A stretch of DNA of 64,000 nt, taken from contig OX597832.1 in assembly GCA_951406725.2 (NCBI GenBank), positions 70,804,001 through 70,868,000 of the forward strand, in the 5' to 3' direction. The notes below the pieces were generated by a model. That model was not told the DNA's origin. It was given only the letters and a program-made list of their open reading frames with translations, and did not search any database. Below are positions 20,877-39,470 of this stretch, in pieces. Position 1 is the stretch's first letter, and each line of letters opens with the position of its first letter. This stretch comes from Octopus vulgaris. Taxonomy: Eukaryota. The position numbers were made by a program, and so were the translations under genes.

Positions 20877-22350
20877 ATAAGGATGAAAAGGAACACACGA
20901 GTTGATATATATGAAAAAACAAGTCAAGATTGAAAATGGTAAAATAATTTTATAAAGAACATTTCAGTACCGGTTTCAGTCATTTTGAGACCTTTTCAAC
21001 TGTAACGATTAAATAATTAAATTTAGAAAAATTAAAAGAAACATTTTTTTTAAAGAATATTTGTATAGTGTTCAAATATAAGTGGCATTTTCCTTGTTTC
21101 TGCCTTTCTCTGTCTCTCTTGTTTACACTTGTGGGTTCGAGGTCATTGTGAAGTCTTGGTAGGGAAGAAGAAGAAGAAGAAGAAGAAGAAGAAGAAGAAG
21201 AAGAAGAAGAAGAAGAAGAAGAAGAAGAAGAAGAAGAAGAAGAAGAAGAAGAAGAAGGGGGGGAGTGCCTTGATTGTCGTATTTTGAGTGGTCAGTGGCG
21301 GCTAGCAGCTGCTGTTCAATTCATGAGAATATTTCTATTGAAAGGTTTGTTTATAGAATTTGCGTAGGTGTTATACTAAAAAGCATTAGTGATAAAGTTA
21401 GGAAGTAGAAGGAGGAGAAGAAGAGGAGGAGGAAAAAGACGAAGAAGAAGAAGAAGAAGAAGATGATGATGATGATGATGATGATGATGATGATGATGAT
21501 GATGATGACGATGATGATGAGGATAATGATGATGATGATGATGAGGATAATGATGATGATGATGAACAAGAAGAAGAAGAAGCAAAAGAAGAAGAAGAAG
21601 AAGAAGAAGAAGAAGAAGAAGAAGAAGAAGAAGAAGAAGAAGAAGAAAGAGAATGGAGAATATGAATGAGTGGAAGTAGTGAGGTGTTGTATGACTTAAA
21701 GTTGGCACGTTATGGGTTATAGCTGTGATTGAGGCTGATTTTTAATGGATTCTTAGGAATGTAATATTTGCGTGTGTATTTGTGTTATTCTAAAGCCGAG
21801 GTGGATATATCGTTTTGCGTAGATCCGTTCAGAAGAGGTCTGTATTTTGTAAGAAAGAGAGTTTCTTTACTTATTCGTTGGCTCGAGGTTGTATCGTCCC
21901 TGAATTGGTAGAGGGGGAAAATCCTGAAGCTTGGTGTTTTGTTGTTGGCGCAAATATCTATGTGTTGGCTGAATGCTATTTTTCTGTTTTGGGGAATTTT
22001 TATCTGGTATCTGTGCAGGGCCATTCTTTTACGCAAACTATTTTTTGTTTGGCCTATGTATTGCTCTTGACACCCAGAGTAGGTTAGTGTGTATATCAGG
22101 TTCTCCGAAGCACATGTGAAGTTGCTTTCCACCGTGAACCGTTGTCCCTGTTTGAAGGAGAACTCTGATCCCTCAATTAGATAATCGCATATCCCGCAAT
22201 TGGGTCTTCCACATCTTTTTTGCTGTCGGCTTCTGTGTTGATGAGCGTATTCGGGCTTGTGTTAGGAGATTTTCATAGATTTAGGCTGTCTCTTGCTTTT
22301 TATGATCGTGTGTGTTTGGAGGATTATCTTCATTCTGTGGTCTTTTTTTA
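20877..22350 (-). mobile_element. Penelope-like element 3' part (family B): GIY-YIG plus 3' UTR with hammerhead
   Basis: IIKSKRQPKS, CGRPNCGICDYL, FTCASENLIYTLTYSGCQEQYIGQTKNSLRKRMALHR; UTR interrupted by (GAA)n/(GAT)n. Confidence 0.85.
20960..21007 (-). ncRNA. Type-I hammerhead motif with U3-A8 core
   Basis: CGTTACAG-TTGAAAA-GGTC tcaaaat GACT-GAAA-CCGG-TA-CTGAAATG. Confidence 0.7.
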
Positions 22351-22826
22351 GCAGTGGCATCCCACACCCCAACCTCGCATCCCCACACCCCAACACCACA
22401 AAACCACACCACCACAGCATCCCGCACACTAGCACTAGCCACTTCCCAGCATCCACACAGCCACACATTACAGACGCACAAACGCACGCACACATCAACA
22501 CGTCAAAGTCACCAGCCCCTATCTACACGCACACACTCTTATATACATACTCACGCGCATCTTCGTTTTGGGATCACTAATAATTTATTATCTCCCCTTC
22601 TTACTAGCTCTCCAGTCTAACTACCTCTGTCCAGCCAGCCGCCATGATTGACTGCTAGCCCCTAAAGCTTTTTTTCTCTCCCTGTTTATTTTCTGCGTTC
22701 CTCTCTGTTGAAGAGCGTAGGCTCGAAACGTAAAAGACTTTCTCACCTTCCCGAGCGTTAAACTAATACAGCTGTTTATTGTTTATATACCTGTCTTCGT
22801 CTTTTGTTTTCCTGTAAATTCCAACT
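22350..22826 (+). mobile_element. Second 3' tail of PLE family A, with hammerhead-like motif at 22697-22738
   Basis: ctgttgaagagcgtaggctcgaaacgtaaaagac...cctgtcttcgtcttttg matches 20727-20835; ends at (TA)n. Confidence 0.75.
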
Positions 22827-22984
22827 ATATTATATATATATAGAGAGAGAGAAGAGAATATATATATATACATATATATATATATATATATATATATATA
22901 GAGAGAGAGAGAGAGAGAGAGACAGAGACAGAGAGAGACAGAGAGAGAGACAGAGACAGAGACAGAGAGACAGAGAGACAGAGA

Positions 22985-36131: not shown

Positions 36132-36360
36132 ACGAGAAAAAAGCAACAAGAATGGATTAGTTTTTTAGTACAATTGTTTCATACAAAGACAGGCTTTATT
36201 AAAAGCTGCAAATATTGCAGCAAATACAAGTGTCCCGTACTCATCAGCTAAAGTACGGACACTTGTATTTGCTGCAATATTTGCAGCTTTTAATAAAGCC
36301 TGTCTTTGTATGAAACAATTGTACTAAAAAACTAATCCATTCTTGTTGCTTTTTTCTCGT
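36132..36360. repeat. Near-perfect palindrome (arms about 108 bp) centred on a hammerhead core
   Basis: acgagaaaaaagc...gtac tcatcagctaaa gtac...gcttttttctcgt. Confidence 0.92.
36164..36252 (-). ncRNA. Type-I hammerhead ribozyme with canonical CUGAUGA core
   Basis: TTTAG-CTGATGA-GTAC...long stem II...GTAT-GAAA-CAATTG-TA-CTAAA. Confidence 0.75.
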
Positions 36361-37386
36361 TTATAATCATCCCACATTATTGTATGGTTAATACCATATA
36401 GTTTTCTGGTGCATCTAAGTTAAGTACCGCATTCAAGTGAATTCATTAGAACTGACTTGAATCTTAATTGCTTTTACTATATATATATATATATATATAT
36501 ATATATATATATATGTGTATGTATGTATGTATGTATGTATGTGTGTGTGTGTATGTATGTATGTATGTATGTATTTATCTATCTATCTATATATATATAT
36601 ATAGATAGATAGATAGATACATACATACATACACACACACACATACATACATACATACACACACACATACATACATACATATATATATATACATATATAT
36701 ATATATATGTATGTATGTATGTATGTATGTATGTATGTATGTATGTGTGTGTATGTATGTATGTATGTATGTATGTATCTATCTATCTATATATATATAT
36801 ATATAGATAGATAGATAGATAGATACATACATACATACATACATACATACACACACACATACATACATACATACATACATGCACACACACACACATACAT
36901 ACATACATACATACATACATACATACATACATACATACATACATACATACATACATACATACATACATACATACATACATACATACATGCATACATGCGT
37001 ACATACAGTCCCCACACATTAGTGTGGTGTGTTTGCAACGAATAATTGTGCAAAGGAATAGTTAAAATTGTTTCAAAGCCGAAACGATGCAGATTTGAAA
37101 TAAGAAGAGAAAAACCGAAGGAACACGAAACCATTTAACACTCAATCTTTCCTTTCTCATGAAATCCAGCAAATACATTTGAAGCTTTGTTTTGACAGCT
37201 TTAGTTTTGCTTCCACTTTTTAATTTCAAATTTTCATTTCACAGGCTTTCAAACTGTCTTAGCAATATATATGCATGCATGTATATATATATATATATAT
37301 ATATATATATATATATATATATATATATATATATATATATATATATATATATATATATATATATATATATATATATATATATATAT

Positions 37387-39470
37387 AAAACAAAGTGGGG
37401 TTGTAGGGTACCACACGAGTGGAATTATATACGAAAGAAAGTTTGAAAATGCAATTTTAAAAGATGTTTATTTACTTTACCGGTTTCACTCTTTGGAAAA
37501 AGATTGTCAAAAGTAACATGTAGAAGTTTGGTTGCGTTAATTATTGGTTGTTACAAAATGCTACATTACATACATACAGTCTTTGGTAACAAGGACATGT
37601 TAAGGACATAAAAAAGTTTAACAAGTTCCTTAAAATATTGGGCACAAAAGATTACAACATAAATATATATTCTCAAGAACATGCTAAAGATAGTTTCCAG
37701 AAGGAATTATGAGAAAGTTCAGTGGGATATTGGTATTGTACCTGTATATTCAAACACGCACAGAATATTGGTTGACACAGAGTACTACAATACATATATA
37801 TACATTCTTTGGGGACAAGAGCATGTTAAGAACATAAAAAAGTTTAACAAGTTCATTGAAATATTAGGCACAAAAGATTACAAGTATATACATTCTCAAG
37901 ATAATTTCCAGAAGGAATTATTAAAAAGTTCAGTGGAATATTGGTATACACACACAGAATATTATGAGTTCAAAAAAGTTTACATTATAATAGTAGGGGA
38001 GCTAAAACTGACCTGTCCACCATGTTAACGTAAAGAATATTATCTATTTCAAGGGACACTGTAGGTGTGTTGGGTGGGGGGAAAGAGGAGTAATGTGGAA
38101 CTGAAAAGAATTTCTCCTTTTTGTCTCTCCTTCAAGCATCAATGATTTGGGGATTGGTTTTTTGAGGTCAGAGTGGTTTGAGTGTGTGTGTCTTTGTGTG
38201 TGTGTATATACATATGTGGTGTGAATAGATGTGTCTGTGTGTTTGTAAAATCTGGTAGGATGGTGTGTGTATATGTGTGCCCGTTTGTGTGTGTGCGTGT
38301 ATATGTGTGTGGTTGATGATGTTTGTTAGTGTGTTGCGTGTGCGTTAGTGTGTATGTGCTTGTCCGTATGTGTGTCCATGTCTGTTGGGTGTATCTGTGT
38401 GGCGTGTGTGTGTGTGTATGCGTTTTGTGTGTGTTGGTATTGAGTATGTGTTTGTGTGTGTGCGTATATATGGTGTGAGTGTATGTTTCTTTGTGTGTGT
38501 ATACATATGTATACATGTGTTTGTGTGGCGGGGGTTGTTTTTCAATGGTCTCAGGGCCCATTGTGGTGTAAATAGATGTGTATTTTTAAGATTTGGTAGG
38601 AATGTGTATGTATATGTGTGCCTGTTTTCCAACCGTGTGTGTGATTGTCTTGGTGTTGTGTGTGTGTGTGTGTATGTGTGTGTGTGTATGTGTGTGTGTG
38701 TATGTATGTGTGTGATTGGCAATTGGCATGGTGCTGCACATGTATATTTGTGTCTGCATGGAGGTCAGAATGGTGTGAGTGTGTGTGTCTTTTTGTGTGT
38801 GTATATATATGTATACATGCGTTTGTGTGTGTGGGGGCTGTTTTTGATTGGTCCCAGGCTCCATTGTGGTGTAAAAAGATGTGTGTTTTTTTAAAATTTG
38901 GTAGGATGGTGTGTGTATGTGTGCCCGTTTGTGTGTGTGTGTATGTGTGTGGTTAGTGTTTGTTAGTGTGTTGCGTGTGCGTTAGTGTGTATGTGTTTGT
39001 TCGTATGTGTGTCCATGTCTGTTGGGTGTATCTGTGTGGCGTATGTGTATATGCGTTTTGTGTGTGTTGGTATTGAGCATGTGTTTATGTGTGTGCGTAT
39101 ATATGGTGCGAGTGTGTGTCTTTGTGTGTGTGTGTATATACATATACATGTATTTGCGTATGAATGTGCATGATTGGTATTTGTCATGGTGCTGTGTGTG
39201 CGCACGTGTGTGTATATGTGTGTCTGTAGGGGGATCAAAACGGTGTGAGTGTGTGTGTATGTATATATATATAATCACATGTGTTTGTGTGTGTGGGCCG
39301 TTTTTGATTGGTCCCAGGGTCCATTGTGGTGTAAATAGGTGTGTGTTTTTAAGATTTGGTAGGAATGTGTGTGTATATGTGTGCCTGTTTGTGTGTGTGT
39401 GTTGTGTATGTGTGTGGTTAGTGTTAGTGTGTTGCGTGTGCGTTAGTGTGTATGTGTTTGTTCGTATGTG
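37387..39470 (-). mobile_element. PLE 3' UTR/pseudo-LTR (family C), long copy with internal duplications
   Basis: Homologous to 22985-24003; about 37590-37790 is duplicated at about 37810-37990; several CA-rich units. Confidence 0.7.
37472..37516 (-). ncRNA. Type-I hammerhead motif with U3-A8 core
   Basis: TTACTT-TTGACAA-TCTTTTTCCAAAGAGT-GAAA-CCGG-TA-AAGTAA. Confidence 0.65.

Follow-up and report, generated by a model that had tools for sequence, protein, structure and literature searches.

Penelope-like elements (PLEs) carry hammerhead ribozymes that, in the published model, act in pairs formed within tandem PLE transcripts, with weak cleavage (PMC4209133; review PMC6765202). In the hammerhead core, C3 and G8 form a tertiary Watson-Crick pair, and the cleavage triplet follows the NUH rule (PMC3884650). 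Minimal hammerheads with U3-A8 at these positions are already in the literature: Cervera and De la Pena (2014; PMC4209133) reported about 1,300 of them as hits in the Cercyon PLEs of Schistosoma mansoni, and a supplement of the same paper holds a U3-G8 motif in Saccoglossus. Here, we describe three U3-A8 hammerheads from a 64,000-nucleotide window of Octopus vulgaris DNA, i.e., the whole stretch analyzed (assembly GCA_951406725.2, contig OX597832.1, positions 70,804,001 to 70,868,000). They belong to two PLE families, B, with a single copy, and C, with the copies C1 and C2. An earlier note on this DNA had taken U3-A8 for an inherited state defining a PLE lineage. We found the variant to be stable within a family yet recurrent across the PLE tree. 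B and C are probably related Neptune-like families with dimer-type type I hammerheads, in which U3-A8 is a compensatory swap that is held once fixed and has recurred elsewhere; for these families we infer cleavage, a dimer mechanism, and a single origin of the swap.

The pattern TTGANAA-N8-30-GAAAYCGGTA had exactly three matches in the window, at 20999-20968(-) in B, 23900-23932(+) in C1, and 37510-37478(-) in C2. Three or more matches occurred in 0 of 100 shuffles of the window (shuffle mean, 0.01), a lenient control because the pattern was derived from the observation itself. Consistent with the earlier note, all three copies share a UUGANAA core with U3-A8, stem III reads AUCGGU in C1 and ACCGGU in the other two, and the terminal motif atatat..actcgtg lies downstream of each. 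The canonical CUGANGA is absent from all three, and their Watson-Crick 3-8 pair together with GAAA places them among the type I PLE hammerheads. The cleavage triplet is GUA in each, in agreement with the NUH rule, and a (TA)n tract stands at the 3′ end of every copy. Over 379 bp, C1 and C2 show 93% identity; they form one family, so the window provides two independent cases. The B hammerhead shares its strand with the endonuclease and follows it downstream, which is the pseudo-long terminal repeat (pseudo-LTR) position in sense to the reverse transcriptase (RT)/GIY-YIG open reading frame (ORF). In family C, the sense ORF has been lost from both copies, and only an inverted RT fragment is adjacent. 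These motifs are real type I hammerheads near the 3′ ends of 5′-truncated Neptune-like PLEs. Their monomer folding energies were unremarkable against shuffles (z = -0.57, 0.21, and 0.21), and none of the Rfam matches listed (150 out of 532) was to a hammerhead family; both results are expected of dimer-type motifs, yet they are not support for them.

Fixation was tested in family C, family B being known from its single copy. Contigs of four public runs from three organisms (1,274, 908, 1,003, and 526 contigs per run) were aligned to 23760-24012 at a likeness of 80%, and variants were counted at 3% or more; depth in these data is not copy number, and contigs lose rare variants. No difference at this level was listed in any of the four runs at 23889-23914, which spans the core (23900-23906) together with the 5′ strands of stems I and II, and none was listed in GAAA. 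The possibility that U3-A8 is sporadic among copies, which would have told against an inherited state, thus finds no backing in family C. The change 23927 T>C stood at approximately 100%, showing ACCGGU to be the family consensus and AUCGGU to be private to C1, by a C>T change at this position. Nucleotide N17 was A but also C (10 to 58% of depth) or U (1 to 40%), giving GUA, GUC, and GUU; among the variants listed, at the 3% threshold, none had G at N17 (GUG), as expected from the NUH rule. U3-A8 is therefore characteristic of family C as a whole, unlike GUA: the GUA noted earlier as shared is read in the three window copies, whereas position 17 varies within the family. Three further variants were found: 23915 C>T lies within loop 2, 23919 G>A turns a U-G pair of stem II into U-A, and 23937 A>G turns a U-A pair of stem I into U-G. 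The loose ends of family C enter (TA)n in all four runs. None of 24 runs listed with the sequence was an RNA run, a result that says nothing on expression.

To place the variant in the PLE tree, 42 aligned homologues were used as the query, yielding 50 loci in genome contigs and 73 in metagenome contigs. Hammerhead calls were made in the sequence downstream of the ORFs, except for two taken from the upstream repeat, and each family contributed one row; most loci lacking a call were omitted, the ambiguous L054 was not counted, and L002, L030, L058, and L078 are weak calls. An element at 25484-26962, of the Hydra clade by eye, was used as the outgroup only. Two 65-row trees gave 6 or 7 core-state changes. 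The 37 typed rows comprised 26 C3-G8, 10 U3-A8, and 1 U3-G8, and their 7 changes compared with 9.0 under label shuffling, with 63 of 1,000 shuffles as low. Monophyly of the 10 U3-A8 rows was rejected by the approximately unbiased (AU) test (p-AU 2e-65). The swap recurs elsewhere in the tree and is thus a local marker at best. Of the lineage proposal, inheritance holds insofar as U3-A8 is fixed in C and B and C share a clade; the definition of a PLE lineage by U3-A8 does not hold.

In the 43-row subclade that contains B and C, 16 rows were typed: 11 were C3-G8, 4 were U3-A8 (B, C, L055, and L006), and 1 was an A3-U8 candidate (L134). Four changes suffice here, with B and C counted as one. In the sister group, two of the three typed members (L051 and L059) are C3-G8 with ACCGGU; L059 also opens stem II with U-U, and the distant C3-G8 relative L067 has ACCGGU as well. 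ACCGGU and U11.1 are therefore older than the swap, and the former does not go with U3-A8 as had been supposed. Families with C3-G8, U3-G8, and U3-A8 coexist in a single metagenome assembly (L097 to L122), suggesting a wobble path between the states.

The B endonuclease and the RT fragment beside C fell into one clade of 17 proteins with a support of 100 in three trees. This clade takes in all of the cephalopod-labelled proteins and two Mytilus-labelled ones. Two proteins match the B fragment at 60%; P0008, one of the two, in turn shows 74% identity to the RT fragment. The 3′ tails of B and C2 aligned with a score of 41, reached by 0 of 1,000 shuffles, and those of B and C1 with a score of only 31 (11 of 1,000). 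The B tail scored as high, at 46 (1 of 1,000), against the C3-G8 relative L002, through its pyrimidine/TA end, and the terminal motif is therefore a weak lineage marker. Upstream of the hammerhead, the 3′ untranslated regions (UTRs) of B and C showed no significant similarity (206 of 1,000 shuffles as high). Judged by protein clade and 3′ tails, B and C are related families. A search of five host genomes for further members of the 17-row clade found none closer than 48% to P0008, and PLE relatives were not found in the viral contigs. The Mytilus-labelled proteins P0004 to P0006, P0026, and P0086 are 68 to 76% identical to the RT fragment, and the two placed in the tree nest within the cephalopod ones, by either horizontal transfer or contamination.

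Stem I of family B consists of 3 bp, a mismatch, and 4 bp, and its stem II consists of 4 bp opening with G10.1-U11.1, followed by GAAA and the ACCGGU palindrome. Family C has a stem I of 6 bp and a stem II with a U10.1-U11.1 mismatch and 5 bp. Between the two families, two-sided changes occur at 2.1-1.1, 2.2-1.2, and 10.2-11.2, and both families have GUUAC on the 5′ side of stem I and GA-U on the 3′ side of stem II. Their helices are thus best read as diverged homologues rather than full replacements: the earlier description of them as fully replaced but still paired was right about pairing and covariation and overlooked the common stretches. In a set of 13 subclade hammerheads, pairing holds in 89% of cells (shuffles, 55%; slid partners, 35 to 43%), 13 of 14 pairs show two-sided changes, and 8 hammerheads have C-G and 5 have U-A as their 3-8 pair; this covariation is partly circular because the set was chosen by a pairing descriptor. 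The family C variants at 23919 and 23937, which both retain pairing, are independent of that set, and the stems covary on both counts. An extra nucleotide separating position 9 from 10.1 is not clearly seen in B and C. This nucleotide and G10.1-C11.1 are common traits of metazoan minimal hammerhead ribozymes but are not universal in PLE hammerheads (PMC4209133). The palindromic ACCGGU duplex has a predicted energy of -8.3 kcal/mol, permitting dimers through helix III, and the monomer hammerhead fold is unfavorable at +1.0 to +3.5 kcal/mol. For B, the dimer fold (-18.3 kcal/mol) comes within 2.2 kcal/mol of the cofold minimum (-20.5).

These features can be combined into a mechanism. The hammerhead lies in the 3′ pseudo-LTR, on the ORF strand, approximately 85 to 100 nucleotides ahead of the insertion end. 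Two copies on a tandem transcript may join via the palindromic ACCGGU, forming stem III, and the RNA would be cut after N17, by analogy with published PLE hammerheads. U3-A8 would be a compensatory replacement of the C3-G8 pair, plausibly via a U3-G8 wobble. The 2′-OH of nucleotide 8, not its base, acts in catalysis. In an Anolis PLE, a compensatory double mutant partly rescued the hammerhead, and cleavage required protein and was dispensable for in vitro insertion (PMC11167929). The window copies are solitary and 5′-truncated and have no partner in cis, so they are probably inert.

Several points weigh against a pair of related, cleaving, dimer-type families. B and C are not sisters in the trees, which carry Shimodaira-Hasegawa (SH)-like rather than bootstrap support. 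B is represented by endonuclease only and C by RT only, so that they have zero alignment columns in common, and the RT fragment is inverted and tied to C by adjacency. The core state was read in 2 of the 17 clade members, B and C, both U3-A8; the other 15 came without DNA. The usually conserved G10.1-C11.1 is G-U in B and U-U in C, although U-U at this position also occurs in the C3-G8 relatives L001, L053, L059, and L132. The dimer folds of C2 (-13.3 against a cofold minimum of -18.9 kcal/mol) and C1 (-8.1 against -15.7) lie 5.6 and 7.6 kcal/mol above the minimum, respectively, and the circularity of the 13-hammerhead set counts here as well. Chance motifs in AT-rich repeat DNA, for which the unremarkable monomer folds and the lack of a hammerhead among the listed Rfam hits could be cited, are refuted by position and covariation: position and strand match the hammerheads of related PLEs, and of 120 matches to a similar pattern in viral contigs, none had both stems. 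We give that explanation next to no weight. It is also improbable that the motifs are kept as structural or protein-binding elements of PLE RNA after the loss of cleavage. The missing G10.1-C11.1, the weak in vitro cleavage of PLE hammerheads (PMC4209133), and the protein-dependent, dispensable cleavage in Anolis (PMC11167929) would fit such a role, but the catalytic positions have no listed variant and N17 avoids G, as expected under selection for cleavage.

How B and C came by the swap is a closer matter. A PLE-wide single origin, with U3-A8, ACCGGU, GUA, and the terminal motif as shared characters, agrees with the two typed members of the 17-row clade, with the fixation in C, and with the similar tails. 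As a PLE-wide claim it is refuted nonetheless, and the strong form is very unlikely overall: the U3-A8 rows are not monophyletic, ACCGGU occurs in the C3-G8 relatives L051, L059, and L067, GUA is polymorphic in C, and a supplement of PMC4209133 places U3-A8 of S. mansoni beside C3-G8 of S. japonicum with nearly the same stem II. Independent switches in B and C, with their other common features coming from a C3-G8 ancestor, deserve more serious thought, given the number of changes on the 65-row trees, the absence of a sister relationship, and the long branch of B (0.5 to 0.6); both changes are also transitions, which may be favored in an AT-rich genome. On the other hand, this requires two origins where one suffices, and of the 14 subclade members typed besides B and C, only 2 carry U3-A8. 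We regard independent switching as possible but the less probable course. Since B and C share a clade with a support of 100, a single U3-A8 origin for the two is the simplest reading, and we lean, by a modest degree, to a single common ancestor having handed the variant to both.

Table 1. Features of the family B and C elements in the window
Feature	Positions	Strand	Details	Basis
Family B 3′ tail past cleavage site	20880..20967	-	Terminal motif 20912-20896; up to (TA)n	
Family B type I hammerhead	20960..21007	-	Core UUGAAAA (U3-U4-G5-A6-A7-A8-A9) 20999-20993; cleavage nucleotide A17 at 20968	Pattern match and folding/alignment
Family B 3′ UTR	21008..21784	-	Microsatellite-rich	Sequence
Family B C-terminal ORF fragment	21785..22363	-	Cys linker and GIY-YIG endonuclease	
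C1 3′ UTR	22990..23891	+	CA-rich repeats; 5′-truncated, ORF gone; start approximate	
C1 hammerhead	23892..23940	+	Core UUGACAA 23900-23906; A17 at 23932	
C1 3′ tail	23941..24017	+	Terminal motif 23979-23995; up to (TA)n	
C2 3′ tail	37388..37469	-	Terminal motif 37430-37414; up to (TA)n	
C2 hammerhead	37470..37518	-	Core 37510-37504; stem III ACCGGU; A17 at 37478	
C2 3′ UTR	37519..39475	-	Internal duplication and CA-rich tandem units (39468, 39007, 38370)	
Inverted RT fragment	39463..39789	+	YGLPKIHK...SFDVVNLYT; abuts C2 5′ end	

In family B, the 3′ UTR connects the endonuclease stop codon with the hammerhead on one strand (Table 1). The ORF fragment is 5′-truncated, has one internal stop, and is 47 to 55% identical to full-length PLE proteins; its Pfam GIY-YIG match has an E value of 0.0022, which is under the curated cut-off. 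The B tail abuts a family A element tail to tail at (TA)n. C2 runs via its CA-rich tandem units to a junction at approximately 39475, with the inverted RT fragment beyond. This fragment matches an Octopus bimaculoides protein at 83% identity (299 hits) and, from its adjacency, probably belongs to family C; inverted 5′-truncated pieces are typical of PLEs (PMC8557442).

Other PLE copies and hammerhead-like motifs surround these elements. Four PLE copies (A, B, A′, and C1) lie end to end at 19319-24017, tail to tail or head to head around (TA)n. The family A hammerheads at 20727-20756(+) and ~22705-22733(+) have CUGUUGA, with U for A at position 6, and GAAACGU; both copies, 72% alike, carry U6. 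A6C is a published hammerhead variant (PMC7151607), and "A6U" was not found in that source. A fold-back PLE at 25019-28069, Hydra-like by eye, has a candidate hammerhead at 27808-27862(+) and an inverted twin at ~25230-25280(-), with CCGAAGA (U4C) and a real stem III hairpin. Inverted C3-G8 candidates with a weak stem II lie at 33733-33781(+) and 33526-33478(-) within a 600-bp palindrome, and further long fold-back palindromes lie at 15818-16575, 29147-29405, and 36127-36365, with arms 91 to 96% identical. Among the relatives, L134 has, downstream of a related PLE ORF, a candidate natural A3-U8 hammerhead at ~91-133(-), with a 7-bp stem I, an AGCGCU palindrome, and a weak stem II; L132 (C3-G8) and L006 (U3-A8) come from that genome as well. 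L078 has a candidate without stem II at ~1860-1895, with three nucleotides between CUGAAGA and GAAA, a 6-bp stem I, and a palindromic stem III. Among L001 to L050, animal PLE contigs turn up in many bacterial genome bins, i.e., host contamination.

In five of the eight relatives examined (L002:1202, L051:1330, L052:586, L055:915, and L057:3263), an ORF1 lies upstream of the RT-endonuclease ORF and overlaps it in the -1 frame. The overlap lies at a TTTTTTA/G run, which suggests a programmed frameshift in the five; in L051, ORF1 has 393 amino acids and starts 112 nucleotides past a hammerhead. The Fig. 1 legend of PMC8557442 refers to an ORF1 with a frameshift in some PLEs. Speculatively, B and C may sit in a little-described two-ORF Neptune-like clade (ORF1 plus a -1 frameshift) whose hammerheads have a 6-nucleotide palindromic stem III, have often lost G10.1-C11.1, and vary at the 3-8 pair among C-G, U-A, and the A3-U8 candidate of L134, and a mainly cephalopod branch of it could have fixed U3-A8 and U11.1 once before reaching a very high copy number. 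If so, this clade would be a natural evolutionary series on the tolerance of the hammerhead active site to core swaps.

The U3-A8 variant is already published, and B and C extend a known kind to a cephalopod host. In the literature searched, "U3-A8" occurred with "hammerhead" in PMC4209133 only, no report of an A3-U8 hammerhead was found, and no cephalopod report of PLE hammerheads was found; this search took in one of the two supplement files of PMC4209133 (no "octopus") and did not take in Lunse et al. on small PLE variants. To a specialist, the finding is tidy rather than surprising. It provides a first test of the lineage idea, as well as population-level evidence that selection keeps a variant core and an NUH site in a high-copy family. 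Hammerheads with U3-A8 also escape searches requiring CUGANGA.

B and C are classed as Neptune-like only, as the tree contains no named Neptune reference. The Neptune PLEs (Craig et al. 2021, PMC8557442) resemble them in the C-terminal GIY-YIG domain, the CX2-5CxxC linker, and the long spacer, as well as in the (TA)n insertion sites, found for all three window copies, the inverted 5′-truncated pieces, and the 3′ hammerhead. Compared by eye with Fig. S2 of that paper, the linker and spacer of B are Neptune- and Naiad-like and unlike Nematis. The subclade of B and C stands apart from the group with window family A, and the upstream ORF1 of five of its eight examined relatives is a further point of difference. 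Short palindromic helices III also occur in shrimp MjPLE, Oikopleura, and Drosophila, but those listed in the PMC4209133 supplement have C3-G8; the Marsupenaeus motif there is like B and C in its 6-nucleotide palindrome and in having no extra nucleotide after A9. Compared by hammerhead architecture, Cercyon shares with B and C the same core covariation, the type I topology, the pseudo-LTR site, mostly solitary and truncated copies, and a palindromic helix III implying dimers. B and C differ from it in their palindrome of 6 nucleotides (ACCGGU) rather than 4, in lacking a clear single nucleotide added after position 9 and before 10.1, in the replacement of G10.1-C11.1 by G-U or U-U, and in their cephalopod host.

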